Positions 1-10,778 of a stretch of 10,778 nt of DNA are shown here, one piece after another. The stretch comes from a virus (lineage: Duplodnaviria > Heunggongvirae > Uroviricota > Caudoviricetes). The notes beneath the pieces were generated by a model. That model searched no databases. It had not been told where the DNA came from and worked only from the letters and a program-made list of their open reading frames with translations. The first letter of the stretch is position 1; every line of letters starts with the position of its first letter. Made by a program: the position numbers and the translations under genes. The DNA lies in the IMG/VR virus record IMGVR_UViG_2579779002_000007, positions 1-10,778 of that record; one strand, written 5' to 3'.

Positions 1-1
1 C

Positions 2-319
2 GATGAACTGCGGCGTAAGAAAATCAGCGCGCTTATCCCTCCCCGAAAAGGTGCGGGCTACTGGCCCGGTGAATATGCAGACCGTAACCGTGCAGTGGCT
101 AATCAGCGAATGACCGGGAGTAATGCGCGGTGGAAATGGACAACAGATTACAACCGTCGCTCGATAGCGGAAACGGCGATGTACCGGGTAAAACAGCTGT
201 TCGGGGGGTCACTGACGCTGCGTGACTACGATGGTCAGGTTGCGGAGGCTATGGCCCTGGTACGAGCGCTGAACAAAATGACGAAAGCAGGTATGCCTGA
301 AAGCGTGCGTATTGCCTGA
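2..319 (+). CDS. IS903-family DDE transposase, C-terminal fragment (5' end truncated by window edge)
   Basis: Frame 2 is open from the window start to TGA at 317-319. The listed 74-aa ORF (95-319) is only the part after an internal Met. Recalled similarity to the IS903 transposase C-terminus. Confidence 0.85.
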   Translation, partial: DELRRKKISALIPPRKGAGYWPGEYADRNRAVANQRMTGSNARWKWTTDYNRRSIAETAMYRVKQLFGGSLTLRDYDGQVAEAMALVRALNKMTKAGMPESVRIA

Positions 320-357
320 AAACACAACCCGCTACGGGGGAGACTTACCCGAAATCT

Positions 358-375
358 GATTTATTCAACAAAGCC
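358..375. repeat. IS903 terminal inverted repeat (outer end)
   Basis: GATTTATTCAACAAAGCC, the reverse complement of the canonical 18-bp IS903 IR; abuts the truncated hsdS codons. Confidence 0.7.
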
Positions 376-442
376 CCCCCAATGGCAACCACTCAACCTC
401 AACCCCATCCAGCAATTTTTCCAGATAACTCATCTCGCTCAT
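376..442 (-). pseudogene. hsdS: Type I R-M specificity subunit hsdS, 5' remnant (about 22 codons) truncated by the IS903-family insertion
   Basis: Minus-strand ATG at 442-440 overlaps the hsdM stop (ATGA). Translation [23 protein letters not shown] matches the conserved N-terminus of type IC HsdS proteins, then runs directly into the IS terminal repeat at 375. Confidence 0.6.
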
Positions 443-2001
443 TTCTGCACCTCGCAGCCTTCAATTTCAGCCACAATCGCATCAATATCTTTGCGCAACT
501 GGTCGATTTTGCTGACCGTGGTTTTCAGTTCTGCATTCAACTCAGCGATATCGATAATTTCGCGAGTATCTTTCGCTTCCACATAGCTGCTCACTGACAG
601 GTTATAGTCATTAGCGACAACGGTCTCAAACGCGACAGATTTCGCCAGATGAGCAACATCTTCCTTGCTGGCAAATACCTGCATAATCTGTTCGATATGG
701 GCATCGGTCAGGATATTGTTGTTAGTCTCTTTTTTGAATAGCTCGCTGGCGTCAATAAACTGAACGTTGGTATCGGTTTTATGTTTAGACAGCACCAGAA
801 TGTTTACGGCAATGGTGGTGCCAAAGAACAGGTTCGGAGCCAGTGAAATCACGGTTTCGACATAGTTATTATCGACCAGATACTGACGGATTTTCTGCTC
901 CGCGCCGCCACGGTAAAAAATACCCGGGAAGCAGACAATCGCAGCACGACCTTTGGCCGAAAGATAGTTCAGCGCATGTAATACAAACGCAAAGTCAGCT
1001 TTGGATTTGGGGGCCAGAACGCCAGCCGGGGCAAAACGTTCATCGTTAATCAGCGTCGGGTCATCGCTGCCAATCCATTTCACCGAATACGGCGGGTTAG
1101 AAACGATGGCATCAAACGGTTTTTCATCTCTGAAGTGCGGTTCAGTCAGCGTATTGCCCAGCTTGATATCAAACTTGTCGTAGTTGATGTTGTGCAAAAA
1201 CATGTTCATACGCGCCAGGTTATAGGTCGTATGGTTGATTTCCTGACCAAAAAAAACTTCTTCGATGATATGGTCATCAAACTGTTTTTTAGCCTGCAAC
1301 AACAGCGAACCGGAGCCTGCTGCCGGGTCGTAGATTTTGTTAACGTGGGGCTGCCCGTGCATAGCCAGTTGTGCAATCAGCTTGGAGACGTGTTGCGGTG
1401 TAAAGAACTCGCCGCCTGACTTACCGGCATTCGCCGCATAGTTAGAAATCAGGAACTCATAGGCATCGCCAAACAGGTCAATCTGATGTTCATTGAAGTC
1501 ACCAAGTTTTAACCCTTCAACCCCTTTCAGAACCGCAGCCAGGCGGGCATTTTTATCCTTAACGGTGTTACCCAGGCGGTTACTGGTGGTATCGAAATCA
1601 GCAAACAAACCTTTGATGTCAGCTTCTGAAGGGTAACCGTAAGCAGAGCTTTCGATAGCAACGAAGATACTGTTTAAATCTGCATTCAGTCTGTCATTGG
1701 TATTTGCTTTCGCAGCTACGTTGCAGAAAAGCTGACTTGGGTAGATGAAGTAGCCTTTGGTTTTGATGGCATCGTCTTTAATGTCATCAGTAATTACGCT
1801 GTCATCCAGTTTCGCATAACAGATGCTGTCATCACCGGCTTCAATATAGCTGGAAAAATTTTCGCTGATAAAACGGTAGAAAAGTGCGCCCAGAACGTAT
1901 TGCTTAAAATCCCATCCATCGACCGAACCCCTGACATCGTTAGCAATTTGCCAGATTTGACGATGAAGCTCTGCACGTTGTTGAATACTTGTCATTTTCA
2001 T
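439..2001 (-). CDS. hsdM: Type I restriction-modification N6-adenine DNA methyltransferase subunit HsdM (EcoR124I-like, type IC)
   Basis: 520-aa ORF with AdoMet motif I ([10 protein letters not shown]) and catalytic motif IV (NPPY, in SNPPYSVKW). The N-terminus [17 protein letters not shown] and the 520-aa length match my recollection of EcoR124I HsdM. The stop overlaps the hsdS start. Confidence 0.9.
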
Positions 2002-2109
2002 CCACTTATTTCAGGCTTATGTAATTGGATGTGATTCTACAGCAACTTGGATGCTTTAGCAGTTCGGACATTAGGCTACGAATGACCTGCCTAGAGGTTT
2101 GTTAAGCCG

Positions 2110-2177
2110 CAAAGTGCTGGTGCTTTATGCCTGTGAAGTTTATAATTGTGTACACATAACGAGTACACGAGGTGTTT
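2110..2177 (+). promoter_or_regulatory. phd-doc promoter/operator region (perfect -10 TATAAT at 2141-2146; palindrome GTGTACAC at 2148-2155 and a second GTAC-centred half-site at about 2161-2168)
   Basis: Perfect TATAAT followed immediately by an 8-bp perfect palindrome and a related repeat, matching the known architecture of the autoregulated P1 phd-doc operator. GAGG RBS at 2169-2172. Confidence 0.55.
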
Positions 2178-2399
2178 ATGCAATCCATTAACTTCCGTAC
2201 CGCGCGTGGCAACCTTTCTGAAGTGCTCAACAATGTTGAGGCCGGGGAAGAGGTTGAAATCACCCGCAGAGGCCGTGAGCCAGCAGTAATTGTCAGCAAG
2301 GCTACTTTCGAAGCCTACAAAAAAGCGGCGCTGGATGCTGAATTTGCATCCCTGTTTGACACCCTGGACTCCACCAACAAGGAACTGGTTAACCGATAA
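2178..2399 (+). CDS. phd: Phd antitoxin (prevent-host-death), 73 aa
   Basis: [73 protein letters not shown] is recognised as P1 Phd. ATG at 2178 is preferred over the in-frame GTG at 2172 because of RBS spacing and the 73-aa product. Stop overlaps the doc start (TAATG). Confidence 0.9.
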
Positions 2400-2779
2400 T
2401 GAGGCATATATCACCGGAAGAACTTATTGCGCTTCATGATGCGAATATAAACCGCTACGGCGGCCTGCCGGGAATGTCAGATCCGGGTAGGGCAGAGGCC
2501 ATTATCGGGAGAGTTCAGGCCAGAGTTGCCTACGAAGAGATCACCGACCTTTTCGAAGTCTCCGCCACCTACCTGGTGGCTACGGCGAGAGGGCATATAT
2601 TCAATGATGCCAATAAGCGTACCGCGCTAAACAGTGCGCTGTTATTTCTACGCCGTAACGGGGTGCAGGTATTTGATTCACCTGAACTGGCAGACCTTAC
2701 CGTAGGGGCTGCGACTGGCGAGATATCTGTATCTTCTGTCGCCGCCACGTTACGTAGATTGTATGGTTCTGCGGAGTAG
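2399..2779 (+). CDS. doc: Doc toxin (death-on-curing; Fic/Doc-family kinase), 126 aa
   Basis: 126-aa product with the Fic/Doc core [11 protein letters not shown], recognised as P1 Doc; translationally coupled to phd. Confidence 0.9.
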
Positions 2780-2783
2780 ATTA

Positions 2784-2963
2784 ATGGCACGCAAATACAA
2801 CAAATTGTCCCGTGAAGCGTTAAAGATGCTTCTTGATGGCGTGAGTCGCCGCAAGGTAAAGCAATACCTGGTTGGTAAGCAAATTGGTGCCAGGACCGCT
2901 ATTGCTGTGTTATGCCGTCAGGAAATGGCTGTGCTTAAACAGAGAATGCCGGGCAGCAGATAA
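2784..2963 (+). CDS. pdcA: PdcA-like small protein (post-doc gene A), probable helix-turn-helix protein
   Basis: ORF immediately after doc. ATG at 2784 has a GGAG RBS at 2773-2776; the longer listed ORF starts at 2763 inside doc. Position matches P1 gene order phd-doc-pdcA-pdcB. Function unknown. Confidence 0.5.
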   Translation: MARKYNKLSREALKMLLDGVSRRKVKQYLVGKQIGARTAIAVLCRQEMAVLKQRMPGSR

Positions 2964-2990
2964 AGCCCAATCAGTGATTAAAGGTGTGAT

Positions 2991-4034
2991 GTGAAAGCCG
3001 TAATTACTCCCTTTGTACAGAAAGAGCTTGGCCTCGCCACGTTCAAAGTGGATCAGGAGGTCAGAAAGCTGGTGGAGGCTGGCCGTAAATTTATTATGGA
3101 GCCGGTGCCGCGTGAGTTAATCGAGCACATGGAAGACGGCCTCGTTGTTACCGAGCAAACCATGGCAACAAATGAGGCGTTGCAGCCGTTTTTTAACAGC
3201 GATGAACTGTTTCGCCGTATTGGTGGAATTGACGCGCTGGTGGCGTGGTTGCGTAGGAAAGAGGGTCAATGCCAGGCCGCAGATCGTAGTTGGTGTGACA
3301 ACCATATTGTCCACGCTGAACGAGACAATAGCGCTGTGTTGTTGTGCTGGCATCACGATAACCATTACCGGATGCGTGGTTTTAATGAGCTGAAAGAAAC
3401 GCTGCACAATAATCGCGTTAACTGGATACTGGATGTCGCCCGTCAGGAAATGGGCCTTTCAAATAGCCATGATTTAAGTATTCAGGAGCTGTGCTGGTGG
3501 GCTTTCATGCGCAACATGATGCACCTGATGCCGGAAGAAGTCTGCCGCATATCAATAAATAAGATGAAGGCTACTCCGCAGGATAGCGGACCTCTGAAAG
3601 AGGCGGATATTCGCCCGTATGACGATCGCGCTACAGCATATGTTCAGATGATGGAAGAACGCGCCGCGCCGATGCGTGCAAAAGTATGCCCTGTGGATGT
3701 TGACTCCGACCCAGGTATGGCGCATTTCAAAATACCAAAACTTCAATCGCTAAAATTGCCCGAGTACATGGACTTTGTGGCTTCCCGTCCATGCTGTGGC
3801 TGTGGAGCTGCGGGAGCTGGCGCTCACATTACGCCTTATATCGTTCGTCATAGTCGATTATGCGCGCATGACATTTATGCTATTCCTCTGTGCCAGTCAT
3901 GCCAGCGTGATATTGAGCGTGACCGCGATAATTGGGAGAAGACGCACGGCAGGCTGGCGATGCATCAACGATTGTTCTTTGATTACGCGCTTGGAGTCGG
4001 CGCTATCACAAGTCACTCGTCGAGCGTTAGATAA
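2991..4034 (+). CDS. pdcB: PdcB-like protein (post-doc gene B), 347 aa, with two Cys/His-rich HNH-like motifs
   Basis: 347-aa ORF with GTG start and AAGG RBS. Position matches P1 pdcB. Contains [15 protein letters not shown]…[10 protein letters not shown] (aa 94-125) and CCGCG…AHITPYI…IPLCQSCQR (aa 268-306). Confidence 0.6.
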
Positions 4035-4035
4035 A

Positions 4036-4052
4036 ATTGCTCTAATGTATTG
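4036..4052 (+). promoter_or_regulatory. C1 repressor operator-like site upstream of lpa
   Basis: ATTGCTCTAATGTATTG matches the recalled P1 C1 operator consensus ATTGCTCTAATAAATTT at 14 of 17 positions (first 11 perfect). Lies directly after the pdcB stop and upstream of lpa, which is known to be C1-controlled in P1. Confidence 0.45.
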
Positions 4053-4122
4053 CTATTTCTTTAATCAAGGGTATTATATTCGTCGTTGATTAGTTGACAT
4101 GGGCTAATCAGTAGGTGACAGG

Positions 4123-4575
4123 ATGTTACTTAACTGGCAGGGACGCCACTTCATGGAAATAAATCACTCACGAATAACATCGTACGAGATTGCGGATTAC
4201 ATGATCCGCACTAAATCTCTTCTATCAGCGAAAGAACTCGCAGCAATTCTTGAAAAGGAATACCCGCATCTGGATGTCGATAAGCGCGATGTTTATCTGC
4301 GCTTAAAGGCTATCGCTGTGTCTAAGTATTCGTCTGTTTTGATTGATGACAGTACACGCCCACGTAGATTTCAGATCCACTCTCTGAATCCTGAATTCTT
4401 TCGCCGTAGCCGCGCTCCGCGCCGGTTTGATGAAAAACTCCAGAACGAACTCTATATGACGCAGGACGAAAAGGAACGCCGGGAGCACCAGCCTTGGGTA
4501 ATGGCGCGTCAACTTTTCAATAAGGTGGCCCGTCAGCACCGTCATTACGGTAATGCCACATCCGCACGTATCTGA
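4123..4575 (+). CDS. lpa: Lpa-like late promoter activator (P1 gene 10)
   Basis: 150-aa basic protein in the conserved position between pdcB and pacA, preceded by a C1 operator-like site. The start may instead be the internal ATG at 4153. Confidence 0.65.
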   Translation: MLLNWQGRHFMEINHSRITSYEIADYMIRTKSLLSAKELAAILEKEYPHLDVDKRDVYLRLKAIAVSKYSSVLIDDSTRPRRFQIHSLNPEFFRRSRAPRRFDEKLQNELYMTQDEKERREHQPWVMARQLFNKVARQHRHYGNATSARI

Positions 4576-4584
4576 TTGATTGCT

Positions 4585-4606
4585 TGCCCGTTCCGGGCCT
4601 TTTGAC
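4585..4606 (+). terminator. Weak hairpin/attenuator-like structure after lpa (GCCCG-TTC-CGGGC followed by CTTTTG)
   Basis: 5-bp GC stem at 4585-4589/4593-4597 with a 3-nt loop and a short T-tract. Overlaps a perfect TTGACA hexamer at 4601-4606. Confidence 0.3.
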
Positions 4607-4661
4607 ATGTGACTTTCGTTACCCTCGCGTCAAAAAGAGTTTTATACGAAAGGAAGCATAA

Positions 4662-5855
4662 GTGACCTGGGACGATCACAAGAAGAATTTTGCTCGCCTG
4701 GCGCGAGATGGTGGTTACACCATCGCACAATATGCCGCCGAGTTTAATCTCAACCCAAACACCGCACGTCGTTATCTCCGTGCATTCAAAGAAGACACCG
4801 GAACAGCGGACAGCCGTAAGCCAAATAAGCCTGTCAGAAAACCACTAAAAAGCATGATCATTGATCACGCTAATGATCAACGTGCAAGTGATCACATTGT
4901 GGCTGAAATGGCTGAAAAACAAAGAGTTAATGCTGTTGTCAGTGCCGCAGTCGAGAACGCTAAGCGCCAAAATAAGCGCATAAATGATCGTTCTGATGAT
5001 CATGACGTGATCACCCGCGCCCACCGGACCTTACGTGATCGCCTGGAACGCGACACCCTGGATGATGATGGTGAACGCTTTGAATTCGAAGCTGGCGATT
5101 ACCTGATAGATAACGTTGAAGCGCGGAAGGCCGCGCGCGCTATGTTGCGTCGATCCGGGGCCGATGTTCTGGAAACCACTCTTCTGGAAAAGTCTCTTTC
5201 TCATCTCCTTATGCTGGAGAACGCCAGGGATACGTGTATTCGCCTGGTGCAGGAAATGCGCGATCAGCAAAAAGACGATGATGAAGGTACTCCGCCTGAA
5301 TACCGTATCGCGAGCATGCTAAACAGCTGTTCCGCGCAGATAAGCAGTCTGATCAACACCATTTACAGCATCCGGAATAACTATCGAAAAGAAAGCCGGG
5401 AGGCGGAAAAGCACGCTTTGTCTATGGGGCAAGCTGGCATTGTTAAGCTGGCATACGAACGAAAGCGTGAAAATAACTGGTCAGTGCTGGAAGCAGCTGA
5501 ATTCATCGAGGCGCATGGCGGGAAAGTGCCGCCCCTGATGCTGGAGCAAATCAAAGCCGATCTGCGTGCTCCTAAGACCAATACCGATGATGAGGAAAGG
5601 CAAACAGCCGTCGGTGGCCCTTCTCTTGAAGATCTGGACAAAGTTGCGCGAGAACGGGCCGCCAACCGCCGCGCCGATGCCGCATTGTGGATTGAGCAGC
5701 GTAGGGAAGAAATCGCCGATATCGTTGATACAGGCGGTTATGGAGATGTTGATACTGAAGGTGTATCAAACGACCCATGGCTGGAACAAGACCTGGACGA
5801 AGACGAGGAGGAAGACGAAGAAGTTACCCGCAAGCTATACGGGGATGATGATTAA
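4662..5855 (+). CDS. pacA: PacA, P1-type terminase pac-recognition (small) subunit, 397 aa
   Basis: GTG start with AAGGAAG RBS; 397 aa, matching P1 PacA length. The pac site hexamer repeats lie inside the 5' part of the ORF as in P1. Stop overlaps the pacB ATG (TAATG). Confidence 0.85.
4855..5014. other. pac: pac packaging site: 4 + 3 hexanucleotide TGATC(A/G) elements, each carrying a Dam GATC site
   Basis: TGATCA at 4855-4860, 4862-4867, 4874-4879 and 4889-4894 (left cluster). TGATCG at 4985-4990, TGATCA at 4998-5003 and 5009-5014 (right cluster). Matches the known P1 pac architecture with cleavage between the clusters. Confidence 0.7.
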
Positions 5856-7339
5856 TGGCCAGAAGTTGCGTAACGGATCCACGTTGGCGCGAGTTGGTGG
5901 CGCTATATCGTTATGACTGGATTGCGGCCGCTGATGTTTTGTTCGGCAAAACACCTACCTGGCAGCAGGATCTGATTATTGAGTCTGTGCAGGAACAGGG
6001 TAGCAAGACATCTGTTTCGTCTGGTCACGGTACCGGGAAATCAGACATGACTTCTATCATGATCATGTTGTTCATAATCATGTATCCCGGTGCCCGTGCC
6101 ATTATCGTTGCGAACAAAATTCAGCAGGTAATGACCGGTATATTCAAGTACATCAAGATAAACTGGGCTACGGCCACCAGCCGTTTTCCGTGGCTTGCTG
6201 ATTATTTTGTTCTGACAGAAACCGCTTTTTATGAAGTTACTGGTAAAGGTGTATGGACTGTAGTACCGAAGGGCTTTCGTCTGGGAAGTGAATAAGCTCT
6301 CGCAGGTGAACACGCAGATCATCTTCTGTATATTATCGATGAAGCCTCCGGTGTCAGTGATAGAGCTTTCGGTATCATCACCGGTGCTCTTACCGGACAG
6401 GATAACCGCATCTTATTGCTGTCACAGCCTACACGCCCAAGCGGCTATTTCTACGATACTCACCATAAACTGGCCAAGCGTCCTGGTAACCCTGATGGCG
6501 TTTATACGGCGATCACGCTTAACAGTGAGGAATCACCGCTGGTAACGCCAGCATTTATCAAAATGAAGCTGGCGGAGTACGGCGGGCGTGATAACCCTAT
6601 GTACATGATTAAGGTACGCGGACTATTCCCTAAATCACAGGATGGCTTCCTTCTTGGACGTGATGAGGTTGAACGTGCGACGCGGCGGAAAGTCAAGATT
6701 GCCAAAGGATGGGGCTGGCTTGCATGTGTGGACGTTGCTGGTGGTACGGGACGGGATAAGTCCGTTATCAATATCATGATGGTGTCCGGCCAGAGAAATA
6801 AACGCCGTGTAATCAACTATCGAATGCTGGAATACACAGACGTTACAGAAACGCAGCTTGCCGCCAAAATTTTCGCAGAATGTAATCCTGAGCGATTCCC
6901 AAATATCACCATAGCGATAGACGGCGATGGCCTGGGTAAAGCAACGGCGGATCTGATGTACGAGTATTATGGTATTACCGTACAGCGTATACGCTGGGGT
7001 AAAAAGATGCATAGCCGTGAAGATAAGAGCCTGTACTTTGATAAACGTGCTTATGCCAACGTTCAAGCCGCAGAGGCCGTAAAATCTGGTCGTATGAGAC
7101 TGGATAAGGGTAATGAAACTATTGAGGAAGCGTCGAAAATCCCTGTAGGGATTAACTCCGCGGGTCAATGGAAAGTGATGAGTAAGGAGGATATGAAGAA
7201 AAAACTCAACCTGCACTCACCAGACCATTGGGATACATATTGTTTCGCTATGCTGGCGGATTATGTTCCTCAGGATGAAGTGCTTAGCGTCGAAGACGAA
7301 GCGCAGGTTGATGAAGCTCTGGCATGGCTTAATGAATGA
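5855..7339 (+). pseudogene. pacB: PacB-like large terminase subunit, 494 codons in total, interrupted by an in-frame TAA at codon 147 (6293-6295)
   Basis: ORF-track pieces 5855-6295 and 6416-7339 are in the same frame. Hand translation of 6296-6415 is open and encodes the Walker B-like segment [15 protein letters not shown]. Walker A (SGHGTGKS) lies upstream of the stop. Total length of 1485 nt equals the expected P1 PacB size. Confidence 0.7.
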
Positions 7340-7342
7340 ACA

Positions 7343-7359
7343 TTTGCTCTAATGAATTG
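7343..7359 (+). promoter_or_regulatory. C1 operator-like site immediately downstream of pacB stop
   Basis: TTTGCTCTAATGAATTG matches the C1 operator consensus at 14 of 17 positions, with a perfect TTGCTCTAAT core. Confidence 0.4.
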
Positions 7360-7484
7360 TGTTTTTTAACTACCGATGTTACATTGAACCTGACCTCTTG
7401 CGCCTTGAGGCATTTTCGGTTTATGCTTATCAGGCACCTCATTAAAACGGGTGCCGGGATTGAGACCCCGGATAATGCAAAAGG

Positions 7485-7519
7485 CGACACAGACGCCAAA
7501 AGCGTCTTTTTTTGTGTCA
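7485..7519 (+). terminator. Rho-independent terminator after the pac operon
   Basis: Stem AGACGC (7491-7496) / GCGTCT (7502-7507), loop CAAAA, followed by a T7 run (7507-7513). An outer GACACA/TGTGTC pair extends the hairpin. No U-tract on the opposite strand. Confidence 0.55.
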
Positions 7520-7555
7520 TGCCATCGCACAGCCATACGTAGCGTTTAGCTCAGA

Positions 7556-7648
7556 GATCAATGGTAGTGCTGGCTGGGCTGCCGAAAGGCAGGCCGGTTC
7601 CCTTTTGCGCCGGTAGTCTCAACCCAGTCAGTGCTACCGCCATTGAGA
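7556..7648 (+). ncRNA. c4: c4-like antisense RNA candidate (immI-type translational repressor, tRNA-like fold)
   Basis: 7-bp long-range stem TCAATGG (7558-7564) / CCATTGA (7640-7646) encloses a CTGGG/CCCAG helix, a GNRA hairpin (CTGCC-GAAA-GGCAG, 7579-7592) and a hairpin (CCGG 7594-7597 / CCGG 7610-7613) whose 12-nt loop contains CCTTTTGC (7601-7608), perfectly complementary to GCAAAAGG (7680-7687) at the icd RBS. Boundaries are approximate. Confidence 0.4.
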
Positions 7649-7698
7649 TTGAGACCTCACGCGGTAGCTCCTTAAATTAGCAAAAGGAGGCTGCCATT

Positions 7699-7920
7699 GT
7701 GGCTACTATCCCTACCCCTGCTCATTCTGAATTTATCTGGCGCTTTTACTCCTGCCAAAAACGTCACTATCACTTCGTTATTGCACCGACAGAAGATGAG
7801 GCACGTTCTCAGCTTCCGGATGCTCCCTGTATTTTCTCTGCCCGCTTTTCTACCGATTCGCGCAATTCTCTCAGTTACTGGTGCCTCCCTATTAACGCTT
7901 CTGCTCAGGAGGGACTATGA
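7699..7920 (+). CDS. icd: Icd-like small protein (interference with cell division), 73 aa
   Basis: GTG start 8 nt after AAGGAGG (7684-7690). 73 codons matches the recalled size of P1 Icd. Stop overlaps the ant ATG (ATGA), consistent with translational coupling. Frame choice is uncertain. Confidence 0.45.
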   Translation: MATIPTPAHSEFIWRFYSCQKRHYHFVIAPTEDEARSQLPDAPCIFSARFSTDSRNSLSYWCLPINASAQEGL

Positions 7921-9029
7921 GAACGTCATTAGTCACCCGTGAAGAGATGATCGAGGCAATTGAACAGCACACTGCCTGTATCAGTACCAGGGATATACCG
8001 GGCGTTATTGCCAACTACTTCATGATCACCAAACAACTTTACCGGAGAAAGGACAAACACGCGGTTCACCGCATTCTGCTAACCGATATCCGTGAATACC
8101 TGCTCGAACAGGGTCATCTGAATTACGCAACCGTCGCAGCCGAAGCACGCAAGGAGGCACACAGAATGAAAGCAACTAACGTTAAATCAGAAAAAATTTA
8201 TGCACCTTCAGTTCAGGAATCGGAACTGGTGGTTGTTCAGAATCAGCCGGATGAAATTCCCGTTCTGGAATGGCAGGGAGTACGTGTCGTGACAACCGAA
8301 ACTCTTGCTAGAGGGTATGGGGTCGATGAAGCCAATATTCGCAACAATTTGTCTCGCAACCTTGACCGCTTTGAAGAAGGTAAGCATTACTTTCTTCTAA
8401 CTGGTTTAAAATTAAGAGAATTTAAGAACAGAGTAACCGGAAGTTACTCTGTTGGTAAGAACGCCAGAAGCCTTACACTCTGGACAGAGCGCGGCGCTGC
8501 ACGCATGTCTAAGATCGTGGACACAAATGAAGCATGGGCATTCTTTGAAAAACTGGAAGACAGCTACTTCCGGCAAAAAGAACAGCAACCGGTTGCAATC
8601 CCCCAAACATTACCAGAAGCCCTACGCCTGGCTGCCGAACTGGCTGAACAAAAGCAGCTTCTGGAACAGAAAGCCCACCAGCTAAATCAGCAGCTGGTAG
8701 CCGCCGCTCCTAAGGTCGATTTTGCCGACCGGGTATCAGTAGCTAAAGGGATCCTGATTGGGAATTTTGCAAAGGTTGTTGGACTTAAGCAAAACGCGCT
8801 GTTTGCCTGGTTACGGGAGAACGGCATCCTGATAGCGTCCGGTGGACGTAAAAATGTGCCGTTCCAGCAGTACATCAACGCGGGGTATTTCACGGTGAAA
8901 GAAGTGGTGCTGGATGATGAAGATGGCTACCAGATACGGTTGACGCCTCAATTAACGGGTAAAGGCCAGCAGTGGTTGACGCGTAAACTGCTCGATGCTG
9001 GCTTGTTAAAACCGGTGGCGGCTGAATAA
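7917..9029 (+). CDS. ant: Antirepressor Ant (Ant1, 370 aa), N-terminal Ant/ORF6N-like domain plus C-terminal KilA-C/ANT domain; nested in-frame Ant2 start at 8166
   Basis: Central segment VLEWQGVRVVTTETLARGYGVDEANIRNNLSRNLDRFEEGKHYF and C-terminal segment GNFAKVVGLKQNALFAWLRENGILIASGGRKNVPFQQYINAGYFTVKEV are typical of phage antirepressor domains. Internal ATG at 8166 (Met84) is preceded by a perfect AAGGAGG at 8151-8157. Confidence 0.75.
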   Translation: MRTSLVTREEMIEAIEQHTACISTRDIPGVIANYFMITKQLYRRKDKHAVHRILLTDIREYLLEQGHLNYATVAAEARKEAHRMKATNVKSEKIYAPSVQESELVVVQNQPDEIPVLEWQGVRVVTTETLARGYGVDEANIRNNLSRNLDRFEEGKHYFLLTGLKLREFKNRVTGSYSVGKNARSLTLWTERGAARMSKIVDTNEAWAFFEKLEDSYFRQKEQQPVAIPQTLPEALRLAAELAEQKQLLEQKAHQLNQQLVAAAPKVDFADRVSVAKGILIGNFAKVVGLKQNALFAWLRENGILIASGGRKNVPFQQYINAGYFTVKEVVLDDEDGYQIRLTPQLTGKGQQWLTRKLLDAGLLKPVAAE

Positions 9030-9036
9030 TGGAAGA

Positions 9037-9064
9037 ATGCCCGGTTGATGCCGGGCATAATTTA
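9037..9064. terminator. Hairpin between convergent ant and c1 (probable bidirectional terminator)
   Basis: 8-bp perfect stem ATGCCCGG (9037-9044) / CCGGGCAT (9051-9058) with a 6-nt loop, flanked by AT-rich sequence on both sides. Sits between the ant stop (9029) and the c1 stop (9062-9064). Confidence 0.5.
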
Positions 9065-9913
9065 TTGCGCGCTTTCGGGGTTGTCGTTTACTGGCTGCCC
9101 CTTCTTGGTTTTACGGCTGCGCGTAACTGATGCGGCTGACTTAACCTTTTTCTCTTCGCGAGTGATGGCAATTTGTTTTTTTACATTTTCAATATCTGCC
9201 AGGCGATATATTTTTGCTTGCGGCCAGCGGTCGCAGATGATCGGTTCTATGGAGTCATAAAGGCTAAATTTTGCTTTTTCGAATTCACCGTTGATGATAA
9301 TTCCATCACGGAGAGTTTCATCGCAGATAAACACGCCACACAGTGGCACATGGTAACTAACTGATTTACCATCATTGTAGTTAGGGCTACTGGAAATGTA
9401 GTGGACGCGCAGCATTGTTTCGCTAAAGCCGTGTACGCGCATACGGAATTTTTCATCCTCCGGGTACTGCTTCATTAGCTCTTTTGTTGCTTCCAGGTTC
9501 TCTATGTATTTCGCACTGTGCTCATTGATCCCCGCGCTTTTTTGGATGCGAATATCCTTATCAATCAGATGAATAATGCGGCCAGCGGTCATGTTGACGC
9601 TGTTCACAGCCTCTGTCTGATAAGTTGTAACCTTACGCACACCGCGAAGGATGTTAGGCACTGGATATAAAATAGTCTTTGGGATATTGAGGTCTGGGTA
9701 CTGTTCCAGTTCCCGCGCCATTAAAGTCCATTTATCAATTTCAGCCTGAATGCTGTCAGTTTCTTTGAACGGTAGAACGACAACCGGGCGTACAGGACGA
9801 CCGTCGCTGGCTGTATCAACGTGTTGGGCGCGTGCAACAGCTTTTTTTAGAAAGAGATCCCTGAAGCTGACGAACTCCTGGTACAGTTGTTCGCCGTAGA
9901 CATAATTTATCAT
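9062..9913 (-). CDS. c1: C1 repressor of lysogeny (P1 immC), 283 aa
   Basis: 283-aa product beginning MINYVYGEQLYQEFVSFRDLF, recognised as P1 C1. GGAGGAGG RBS upstream of the ATG on the minus strand. Confidence 0.9.
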   Translation of the reverse strand: MINYVYGEQLYQEFVSFRDLFLKKAVARAQHVDTASDGRPVRPVVVLPFKETDSIQAEIDKWTLMARELEQYPDLNIPKTILYPVPNILRGVRKVTTYQTEAVNSVNMTAGRIIHLIDKDIRIQKSAGINEHSAKYIENLEATKELMKQYPEDEKFRMRVHGFSETMLRVHYISSSPNYNDGKSVSYHVPLCGVFICDETLRDGIIINGEFEKAKFSLYDSIEPIICDRWPQAKIYRLADIENVKKQIAITREEKKVKSAASVTRSRKTKKGQPVNDNPESAQ

Positions 9914-10007
9914 TGATCCTCCTCCAGAATTGACATGGCCAATAACGCCCGGCTGAGAAAACCGGTCATTACTGACCTATATTATAGAGGGATCAAACAA
10001 AAATAAT

Positions 10008-10024
10008 AGATTTATTAGTGCATT
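10008..10024 (-). promoter_or_regulatory. C1 operator-like site (Op99-type) between coi and c1
   Basis: Reverse complement AATGCACTAATAAATCT matches the C1 operator consensus at 14 of 17 positions. Located in the c1 upstream region where P1 carries autoregulatory operators. Confidence 0.45.
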
Positions 10025-10233
10025 TATTGTGAGTCTAACTGGTTAGTTGCCATGAGATATTCGATTGTGTCAGTGAGGTCATCCAGGTCGTCTTGGGTGA
10101 TGCGGTACTCCTGATTGGATATCTTTGAGTAGTGTTCAGCAATGGCGCGGGCAGCGTCGGTTTCGGCAGGGTCTACAGATAAAGCGTTAGAGCAATGTCT
10201 AACGTCGTCGATGGTTGGTTGAATGAAAGCCAT
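10024..10233 (-). CDS. coi: Coi, C1 inactivator protein, 69 aa
   Basis: 69-aa acidic protein directly upstream of c1 on the same strand; size and position match P1 Coi. Confidence 0.85.
   Translation of the reverse strand: MAFIQPTIDDVRHCSNALSVDPAETDAARAIAEHYSKISNQEYRITQDDLDDLTDTIEYLMATNQLDSQ
10180..10196 (-). promoter_or_regulatory. Additional C1 operator-like site inside the coi coding region
   Basis: Reverse complement ATTGCTCTAACGCTTTT matches the consensus at 13 of 17 positions, with a perfect ATTGCTCTAA half. Confidence 0.3.
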
Positions 10234-10316
10234 AATTATGCCTCACTGTATTGACAACACAGAGCCTGAAGCTCTGACCTACTGTTTCACCCATGATCCA
10301 TGCTGGGGTAATCTAA

Positions 10317-10778
<462 letters not shown>

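Follow-up and report, generated by a model that had tools for sequence, protein, structure and literature searches.

The closest described relatives of the locus analyzed here are the immI regions of P1 and P7, in which the operator (Oc4/Op51), the promoters P51a and P51b, the sites a1 and b1, the antisense RNA c4, the sites a2 and b2, and the genes icd and ant1/ant2 follow one another. In P1, ant requires translation of icd to escape Rho-dependent polarity. The c4-icd-ant operon of the reference P1 genome (NC_005856) adjoins sim and kilA-repL, and pacB lies directly before c1, with 24 bp from the pacB stop to the c1 stop, as the first-pass annotation of our sequence had correctly stated. A comparable system is the isrK-orf45-anrP locus of Gifsy-1 in Salmonella, which combines a leader of the isrK family, whose leaky terminator is read through, a short upstream ORF to which translation of the antirepressor is coupled, and a processed, structured downstream RNA (STnc1160) complementary to the IsrK leader (Hershko-Shalev et al. 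2016, PMC4825925). In the published model, the short IsrK RNA refolds the long mRNA, and the system is not cast as a c4-type repressor (PMC4825925). A further relative, the immI-like region of the plasmid prophage D6, adjoins ref/mat. Venturini et al. (2019) devote a single sentence to an insertion between pacB and c1, and this sentence was the only functional description of a pacB-c1 cassette that our search of the literature returned.

The stretch of DNA examined here, hereafter the window, spans 10,778 nucleotides. Its pacB gene ends at position 7339 and its c1 gene, on the minus strand, ends at 9062; relative to the 24-bp gap of P1, a block of 1722 bp (7340-9061) is therefore extra. The sequence analysis confirms this block as a real and intact cassette with the composition of an antirepressor module under antisense-RNA control, and we consider it very probable that the P1 family has here, inserted at the pacB-c1 junction, a second and self-contained cassette of the immI type. 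An operator, a c4-like RNA, a 73-codon icd and a 370-codon ant with a nested start had been proposed by the first-pass annotation, and every one of these elements was recovered where it had been placed, beyond chance expectation. The 24-bp spacer of P1 and the edges of the block have only the short motif ATGCCGG in common; a search for repeated sequence or duplicated target sites at the ends of the insertion found this motif alone, which gives no clue to the mechanism or to the ancestral state. The neighboring repressor gene (9062..9913, minus strand; NF041318 equivalog, 611 bits) is convergent with ant, as had been noted, and encodes a protein 99.3% identical to P1 C1, which presumably regulates the operator and is targeted by Ant. 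The terminator scan located a hairpin with a 9-bp stem in the gap that separates the facing stops of ant and c1 (9037..9058, assigned to neither strand); it is likely a bidirectional terminator with weak T tails on either strand.

At the upstream end of the block, a C1-operator-like site, TTTGCTCTAATGAATTG, occupies positions 7343..7359 on the plus strand. It matches the asymmetric 17-bp C1 operator consensus, ATTGCTCTAATAAATTT, at 14 of 17 positions, and the window contains three sites with three mismatches at most, versus 0.04 expected; the other two are the known Olpa and Oc1a positions. All three deviations are individually present in annotated P1 operators (OrepL or Olpa), the position corresponds to that of P1 Oc4/Op51, and the site aligns with Oc4 and with the -35 region of P2c4. 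The operator core is kept in 56 of 57 loci in the pacB context; the form seen in the window lies one mismatch above the commonest family variant and occurs in only seven of the 57. These features identify 7343-7359 as a candidate C1-controlled operator placed over a promoter, and studies of P1 suggest that C1 would bind it.

Two promoter-like sequences follow on the plus strand. The first, TTGTGT-N17-TACATT (7357..7385), overlaps the operator and is the putative positional homologue of P1 P2c4 (P51a), whose -35 TTTGTAT and -10 TATCTT align with its hexamers; it is weak, with only 7 of 12 consensus positions. The second, TTGCGC-N18-TATGCT (7398..7427), has 8 of 12 consensus positions, ends 6 nt upstream of the leader start (GCACC), and shares its -35 element and spacing with the leader promoter of D6 (TTGCGC-N18-TATATT); the motif recurs in 56 of the 57 pacB-context loci. 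A consensus promoter scan with a threshold of 9 of 12 called neither candidate, so both assignments derive from homology to P1 and D6.

The RNA that would start near 7434 begins with an isrK-type leader (7434..7512, plus strand). It scores 59 bits against Rfam RF01394 (gathering score, 50) and ends in a Rho-independent terminator (7491-7507 followed by a run of seven T residues, plus strand, from the terminator scan), which points to membership of the isrK family. Hfq binding and trans-activation of a downstream ORF and antirepressor by isrK are known only for Gifsy-1. The leader carries, on the same strand, the sites a1 (TTGAGAC, 7460-7466) and b1 (GCAAAAGG, 7477-7484), each an exact complement of a c4 loop. 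The C4 antisense RNA gene itself (7557..7644, plus strand) matches the full Rfam RF01695 model (positions 1-87) with 75 bits (gathering score, 45) and an E-value of 1.4e-13. Its predicted fold has a minimum free energy of -46.4 kcal/mol (z -5.6) and leaves two recognition elements unpaired: b' (CCUUUUGC, 7601-7608), in a hairpin loop, and a' (GUCUCAA, 7616-7622).

Both c4 loops thus have two perfect targets, one in the leader and one at the icd ribosome-binding site, where a2 (7649-7655) and b2 (7680-7687), within 7649..7690 on the plus strand, are complementary without mismatch over 7 and 8 nt; the icd Shine-Dalgarno sequence AAGGAGG (7684-7690) lies partly within b2. When c4 was searched against its flanks for complements of at least 7 nt, a1, b1, a2 and b2 were the exact complements of a' and b'. 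The search also gave three further matches: two involve stem or end positions of c4, and the third (7369-7375) has 2 nt in common with a'. The minimum-free-energy fold of 7434-7725 additionally predicts a local anti-Shine-Dalgarno hairpin (7663-7695, plus strand). Anatomy, homology, complementarity and covariation are read directly from the sequences: the c4 loops and both pairs of targets co-vary among RCS47, D6, P1 and JL22, the covariation extends over at least 10 loop/target combinations in 77 IMG/VR loci, and the c4 type of 673R5 keeps its pairing through G.U wobbles. Together with the score and fold, this complementarity places the RNA, by sequence criteria, in the C4 family. By analogy with P1 and Gifsy-1, it would be processed from the operon transcript and would repress translation of icd and ant.

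The icd homologue (7699..7920, plus strand) encodes 73 amino acids, starts with GTG 8 nt downstream of AAGGAGG, and matches the NCBIfam Icd-like model NF033153 (E-value, 2.4e-13; 49.9 bits versus a cut-off of 25). Among relatives, the start codon is ATG in 48 cases and GTG in 13. The product is 81% identical to P1 Icd over residues 11-73, and this homology, together with the position of the gene directly upstream of and overlapping ant, argues for its assignment as Icd. The two genes overlap through ATGA, and studies of P1 suggest that ant is translationally coupled to icd in this way. The ant1 homologue (7917..9029, plus strand; 370 codons) encodes a protein with matches to Pfam ORF6N (2.5e-18) and ANT (1.5e-31), the latter being the KilA-C ANT domain PF03374 at residues 258-359 (109 bits versus a cut-off of 25.3). 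Its identity to P1 Ant1 is 57% along the full length (1-368; E-value, 1.5e-131), in line with the earlier proposal of an antirepressor. The domain composition of P1 Ant1 is not matched throughout: the window protein is a mosaic of a P1-like N-terminus (1-83), an ORF6N middle and a P1-like KilA-C C-terminus. A nested, ant2-like reading frame (8166..9029, plus strand) starts at Met84 (nucleotide 8166), has AAGGAGG 7 nt upstream, and in the alignment begins at the very residue where P1 Ant2 begins (Met84, within the conserved RKEAHRM motif; P1 ant2 coordinates were taken from the reference annotation). Relative to P1, dN/dS is 0.09 for icd, 0.10 for the N-terminal and 0.07 for the C-terminal part of Ant, and purifying selection acts on all three. 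Inactivation of C1 by Ant1 and Ant2 would follow the pattern described for P1. Four small ORFs in the block, 7336-7542 (plus), 7329-7520 (minus), 7697-7942 (plus) and 7561-7680 (plus), have no Pfam or NCBIfam matches and overlie the operator and leader, c4 or the icd frame; they were therefore dismissed as spurious.

Compared with P1 and P7 immI, the cassette has the same order of parts, the same C4 RNA family and fold, and two recognition elements facing two targets each at similar spacing. The operator/promoter region is homologous to that of P1 (Oc4-P2c4 aligned), and the placement of b2 over the icd Shine-Dalgarno sequence, the 4-nt icd/ant overlap and the Ant2 start residue are likewise those of P1. 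It differs in its location at pacB-c1 instead of sim/kilA-repL, in its leader, which is an Rfam isrK RNA with an explicit intrinsic terminator whereas P1 has an RNA of the c4-a1b1 family at this position, and in the central domain of Ant, where ORF6N replaces the P1-type domain. The recognition elements a' and b' are also unlike those of P1/P7 immI, so the cassette is predicted to be heteroimmune to them. In contrast, the a', b', a1, b1, a2 and b2 sequences of D6 are identical to those of the window, and the leader, c4 and icd start together are 95.4% identical; the predicted c4 immunity specificity is therefore that of D6. The remainder of the D6 region is different: its genomic site is another one, its Icd is only 68% identical, its Ant (313 amino acids) has no similarity detectable by BLASTP, and a P1-type C1 operator is not visible by eye in the ~120 nt upstream of its leader. 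The sequence comparisons depict a mosaic cassette with a D6-identical c4 specificity, a lambdoid ORF6N middle and P1-like Ant ends. Gifsy-1 shares the leader type, the structured RNA and the coupled upstream ORF, but it is a chromosomal lambdoid prophage with a 45-codon upstream ORF, lacks a C1 operator, and has an output read through AntQ. The isrK-type leader with a1 and b1, the c4 specificity shared with D6 and the IS-bounded state of the remnant described below had all been overlooked by the first-pass annotation.

For these parts, we propose a scheme that takes RNA processing, translational repression, Rho coupling, C1-operator binding and the action of Ant on C1 from studies of P1 and Gifsy-1. 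Transcription would start from two promoters downstream of pacB, the weak one being overlapped by the C1 operator, as in P1 Oc4/P51a, and TTGCGC-N18-TATGCT giving an RNA start near 7434. The first ~80 nt of this RNA would form the leader, with a1 and b1 as decoy sites; part of the transcripts would end at its terminator and yield a short RNA, and the remainder would read into c4, icd and ant. The c4 RNA would presumably be excised from the read-through transcript, as in P1, and its unpaired a' and b' would pair with a2 and b2. Because b2 covers the icd Shine-Dalgarno sequence, icd would stay untranslated and, given a P1-type dependence of ant on icd translation, no Ant1 or Ant2 would be made while a matching c4 is present. 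Both would be produced once c4 is absent, outnumbered or titrated, possibly upon entry into a cell without the matching c4 type or through a surplus of leader RNA, as with IsrK in Gifsy-1, and Ant would then inactivate C1. Canonical P1/P7-type immI has another c4 specificity than this cassette (a, TTGAGAC; b, GCAAAAGG), so the two kinds of cassette should operate independently; an element with both could repress two classes of incoming ant operons and could express an antirepressor in lysogens holding just one c4 type.

Whether this scheme operates in the window depends on the state of its host element, which looks defective. The window pacB contains a nonsense codon (GAA>TAA at 6293-6295) that is missing from relatives, and IS903B (1-388) lies at one end of the P1 segment, with an IS5-family element (from 10317) at the other; the window is an IS-bounded, degraded P1 remnant. 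Its closest sequenced relative, plasmid pE102651_87 (99.7% identity over 1-10316), is a cargo plasmid without most phage genes, in which kilA-repL and the tail genes are missing and a single C4 gene is present. The cassette could therefore be inert, a relic left when a P1 prophage or plasmid decayed and retained only because it is linked to c1, phd-doc and the plasmid backbone, and it may have no remaining lytic program to control. We regard this as possible, with the odds against it: the cassette has all its parts in intact form, each of the three Ant segments matches, with 100% protein identity, those of loci on contigs of phage-plasmid size (~98 kb, e.g., L034), and any P1- or D6-like phage that enters could still be affected in trans by c4 and Ant.

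A functional cassette, our preferred reading, may also have a target other than the resident repressor. The middle of Ant (residues ~85-228) is of the lambdoid ORF6N type and highly variable among relatives, so its target could differ from C1. These central 145 residues scarcely align with P1 Ant1, to which they appear unrelated, and are ~40-56% identical to Ant proteins of Stx/lambdoid and Firmicute phages, those of lambdoid/Stx phages being the closest. They also diverge most among relatives (dN 0.26 and dN/dS 0.41, versus at most 0.10 in the flanking parts), and ORF6N and P1-type middles have been swapped between sites. Regulation could then be as proposed, with the ORF6N middle serving in target recognition and Ant aimed mainly at the repressors of other prophages or competing phage-plasmids, in the manner of Gifsy-type antirepressors, whose action crosses from one prophage to another. 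We judge this unlikely, since purifying selection acts on both ends of the protein, which it has in common with P1 Ant1/Ant2, and the cassette has a candidate C1 operator and adjoins c1.

The block is annotated at the same junction in the ICTV exemplar Punavirus RCS47 (NC_042128), in JL22 and in vB_EcoM-673R5, with nucleotide identities of 95%, 99.6% and 87%, respectively, and pTZ20_1P also shares block and junction with the window. RCS47 has a different b' specificity (GTCAAAGG versus GCAAAAGG in the window) and an Ant 86% identical, with differences mostly in the middle; in 673R5 both a' and b' differ. At a coverage of at least 80%, the block is present in 309 PLSDB plasmids, the direct P1-type junction being found in 314 of 703 records, and it occurs in 59 of 79 IMG/VR loci. 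The novelty implied by the first-pass annotation is therefore not borne out: the cassette is an already deposited and annotated variant. Its own proviso, that the block might prove to be the standard arrangement at pacB-c1, largely holds, since about half of the sequenced P1-like plasmids carry it. Published annotations of the block comprise ant, 'roi' or hypothetical ORFs only, with c4, leader and operator absent. Among annotation errors, a PGAP 'ash family protein' CDS lies over the c4 RNA, and icd was called in the wrong frame in JL22.

The search for an additional copy beside kilA-repL, carried out on relatives, found one in JL22, where the pacB-c1 block is accompanied by a canonical icd-ant1-kilA-repL region that has its own c4, of the P1/P7 type, and none in pE102651_87. 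Similarly, most of the top plasmid hits match at two places, and all 10 genomes or contigs with at least two modules combine distinct c4 specificities, one of them (L017) also holding a tandem duplicate of one cassette type. In intact relatives, the sequences thus indicate a second, orthogonal cassette alongside canonical immI, and of the origins first suggested, a second heterologous antirepressor cassette beside immC and a distinct P1-family lineage both gained support. The third, in which the sole c4-icd-ant operon moved from the sim/kilA-repL neighborhood to pacB-c1, could appeal to the single C4 gene and missing kilA-repL of pE102651_87 and to the window being the only visible part of its replicon, but we reject it as highly improbable because JL22, RCS47 and most relatives have both loci by sequence, wholesale deletion of phage genes explains the single copy without transposition, and the leader and c4 are of the isrK/D6 type, unlike canonical P1 c4.

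Taken alone, the window matters little, being a common variant of the P1 backbone with all its components in characterized families, and its residual value is comparative. As a tentative generalization, which we hold to be less than an even bet, P1-family phage-plasmids may combine two to four mutually orthogonal c4-icd-ant cassettes at a small number of fixed positions (kilA-repL, pacB-c1 and ref/mat). Each cassette would have an RNA "barcode" in two parts (a' x b'), reshuffled in a combinatorial way, and the isrK-type leader would serve as a sponge, gated by its terminator, that titrates the c4 of the same cassette. In the literature searched, we found no description of such a multi-cassette barcode logic or of a functional equivalence of isrK and c4-a1b1. 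If the generalization is true, the set of barcodes would decide which entering relatives are silenced and whose lysogens are broken. The reference P1 map is in any case unrepresentative, with about half of P1-like plasmids having a second immunity cassette beside c1, and the specificities given by the c4 loops with their targets are diverse and combinatorial. Among phage-plasmids that disseminate resistance genes, these specificities probably determine superinfection immunity and cross-induction.

The window is a P1-family (Punavirus) segment by its ORF map and family scans, with an IS903B-type end (1-388), beside a truncated hsdS/hsdM region, as its left boundary and an IS5-family element from 10317 (10317-10778 in the window) as its right. 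Between them lie hsdM (439-2001, minus strand), phd-doc (2172-2779), pdcA-pdcB (2763-4034), lpa (4123-4575), pacA (4662-5855), pacB (5855-7339), the block in question (7340-9061), c1 (9062-9913, minus strand; 99.3% amino acid identity to P1 C1) and coi (10024-10233, minus strand; 97%). The P1 map given in the first-pass annotation is correct: in NC_005856 only 24 bp separate the stop codons of pacB and c1, so P1 lacks the 1722-bp block at this junction, and c4-icd-ant1/2 lies between sim and kilA-repL, ~45 kb away. The hsdM gene encodes a complete type I restriction-modification methyltransferase (520 aa) and is the immediate upstream neighbour of phd-doc, an order shared with vB_EcoM-673R5 and many plasmids; in the P1-like phages JL22 and RCS47, the place directly upstream of phd is taken by humD.

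The proposal that the block is an immI-like c4-icd-ant module was borne out by its RNA and protein matches. The c4 RNA gene (7557-7644) scores 75 bits against Rfam C4 (gathering score 45, E 1.4e-13), with a fold z of -5.6. The 73-codon icd (7699-7920) starts at a GTG that follows AAGGAGG by 8 nt, and its product is 81% identical to P1 Icd. It shares an ATGA overlap with the 370-codon ant (7917-9029), whose product carries an ORF6N and a KilA-C ANT domain (Pfam), shares 57% identity with P1 Ant1 along its whole length, and has a Met84, with AAGGAGG upstream, that aligns with the P1 Ant2 start. A likely terminator hairpin with a 9-bp stem (9037-9058) lies between the converging ant and c1. In the JL22 annotation, ant is labelled "roi", gp121 (L001 6356-6601; window 7697-7942) is a +1-frame ORF overlapping icd rather than icd itself, and gp120 (L001 5995-6201; window 7336-7542) lies across the operator, the promoters and the leader RNA. 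RefSeq/PGAP places a 39-aa "ash family protein" CDS exactly over the c4 RNA gene (window 7561-7680, plus strand; L009 7240-7359); the translated ORF matched no NCBIfam model at E <= 1, and an RNA gene has likely been mistaken here for a coding sequence.

Upstream of c4 lies an isrK-type leader (7434-7512; Rfam isrK, 59 bits against a gathering score of 50), with a hairpin and then a T run at its end. Two elements are unpaired in the c4 fold, b' CCUUUUGC (7601-7608) and a' GUCUCAA (7616-7622), and each has two exact complements: a1 (7460-7466) and b1 (7477-7484) within the leader, and a2 (7649-7655) and b2 (7680-7687) before icd, where b2 overlaps the Shine-Dalgarno sequence. P1 has the same annotated layout (a1, b1, c4, a2, b2) with similar spacing, but the sequences differ, and Rfam assigns its leader to c4-a1b1 rather than isrK. 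The two leader families hold the same functional position. Both isrK (window 7434-7512) and c4-a1b1 (L004 1718-1770) lie upstream of C4 and contain a1/b1 decoy sites, although Rfam keeps isrK outside the C4 clan CL00128. Because of this shared position and these shared sites, Gifsy-1 may itself have a c4-type operon in which IsrK is the a1/b1 leader and STnc1160 the homologue of c4.

How the cassette would work can be modelled by transfer from two systems, P1/P7 immI and Gifsy-1 isrK. In P1/P7 immI, c4 reportedly blocks icd translation, and ant is then said to fail through coupling and Rho polarity. Gifsy-1 isrK involves terminator read-through, a trans-activating short leader RNA and upstream-ORF coupling (PMC4825925). 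In the predicted minimum free energy fold of the 292-nt read-through RNA, the c4 shape is retained and the icd Shine-Dalgarno sequence falls within a local hairpin. This predicted hairpin (7663-7695) would pair GGUAGCUCCUU with AAGGAGGCUGCC, sequestering the Shine-Dalgarno sequence and leaving the 5' half of b2 in the loop, and recalls hairpin d-I at Gifsy-1 orf45.

A candidate C1 operator, TTTGCTCTAATGAATTG (7343-7359), matches the consensus at 14/17 positions, and each of its three deviations also occurs in some annotated P1 operator. At this stringency 0.04 sites would be expected in the window and three are present, the remaining two where the known operators Olpa and Oc1a lie. Olpa (4036-4052) is identical to P1 Op94 and Oc1a (10008-10024) to its P1 counterpart; the C1 regulon sites of the segment are therefore intact. 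Alignment with P1 immI shows the block's promoter region to be homologous to P1 Oc4 and to the P2c4 (P51a) promoter that overlaps it. There is a second promoter-like element at 7398-7427, TTGCGC-N18-TATGCT, which stops 6 nt short of the leader, has a -35 and a spacing also seen in phage D6, and recurs in 56/57 related loci. Both elements are weak by consensus, and a promoter scan called neither.

The recognition elements covary with their targets. The b' loop is CCUUUUGC in the window and D6, CCUUUGAC in the RCS47 pacB-c1 cassette, UCACUAAC in P1 and UCACAAUC in the canonical immI of JL22, and the corresponding b1 and b2 targets are GCAAAAGG, GTCAAAGG, GTTAGTGA and GATTGTGA. Among 79 IMG/VR loci retrieved through Icd, 77 with c4, pacB-c1 cassettes carry a-types TTGAGAC, TTGGAAC or TTGGCCT and b-types GCAAAAGG, GTCAAAGG or GTCTAAGG. 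All four combinations of the first two a-types and first two b-types occur there; TTGGCCT and GTCTAAGG occur together, with pairing kept through G.U wobbles. P1-type c4 RNAs at other sites have 2 a-types and 5 b-types. In every exact type the loop is matched by both target copies, and since mutually compensating changes fall at three places, these comparisons are strong evidence that loop-target pairing is functional.

The block is a mosaic when compared with its relatives. Between the start of the leader and the early part of icd it is 95.4% identical to D6, with identical a/b elements, whereas the D6 Ant is unrelated to that of the block. The latter is P1-like in its N-terminus (1-83) and C-terminus (229-370), both of which are under purifying selection (dN/dS 0.10 and 0.07; icd 0.09). 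Its middle, the ORF6N domain, is ~40-56% identical to Ant of Stx/lambdoid and Firmicute phages and is the most variable part among relatives. The pacB-c1 and kilA sites have swapped both c4 types and Ant middle types, as at locus L031, where an isrK-type c4 adjoins kilA.

Among its readings, the first-pass annotation offered a relocated immI and a second cassette. Relocation is very unlikely given JL22, which has both loci, and given the second matching place in most top plasmid matches. The second-cassette reading stands, as JL22 also has the canonical icd-ant1-kilA-repL with its own P1/P7-type c4 and c4-a1b1 leader. Distinct c4 specificities co-reside in 10/10 genomes or contigs that have at least two modules. 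Three different c4 specificities, with one cassette tandemly duplicated, are found on one 42-kb IMG/VR contig (L017, with c4 at 3360 and 4926, L081 and L082), and L074 has two cassettes in opposite orientation. Such multi-cassette contigs may reflect genuine stacking or may have arisen in assembly. A third cassette site, near ref/mat, is used in D6 and, according to Venturini et al., in pSvP1.

The best matches over 1-10316 are an E. coli chromosome (99.8%) and plasmid pE102651_87 (99.7%; NZ_CP189663.1; L008, L009). This plasmid, a P1 replicon in degraded form, retains the genes for P1 replication and partition (repA, parAB), a few structural genes and segment 1-10316; it has only one C4 gene and has lost kilA-repL, the canonical immI and the tail genes. 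Its cargo comprises an O-antigen-like sugar cluster, a cellulose cluster (bcsABC), the his operon, an autotransporter and many IS elements. In the window, pacB has an in-frame TAA at 6293-6295 where pE102651_87 and JL22, both close relatives, have GAA. The large terminase subunit is thereby cut short after 146/494 codons, which reflects either a pseudogene or a sequencing error. The IS5-family element at 10317 follows a CTAA target and starts GGAAGGTGCGAATAAG. It cuts off imcA together with the coi promoter/operator region (P1coi/Oc1d) that lies upstream of coi-c1; in RCS47, too, imcA contains an IS5 (insH). Given the nonsense codon, this insertion and a nearest relative stripped of most phage genes, the host of the cassette is probably a defective P1 derivative, with the cassette's own parts intact.

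The rarity implied by the first-pass annotation did not hold. The full block sits at pacB-c1 in JL22 (99.6% identity), RCS47 (95%) and vB_EcoM-673R5 (87%), and at least 80% of it is carried by 309 PLSDB plasmids. A P1-type pacB-c1 junction probe found 703 PLSDB records, with the junction uninterrupted in 314; with 309 against 314, the two states are about equally common. In IMG/VR, 59/79 loci have pacB upstream and/or c1 downstream. Venturini et al. mention the pacB-c1 arrangement, naming RCS47, and our literature search found no paper analysing the RNA parts or function of the pacB-c1 cassette. The parts of the block are of known kinds, and the arrangement itself is a known and widespread alternative within the P1 family; its comparative interest, which is modest, comes from c4 specificities that are stacked and orthogonal.
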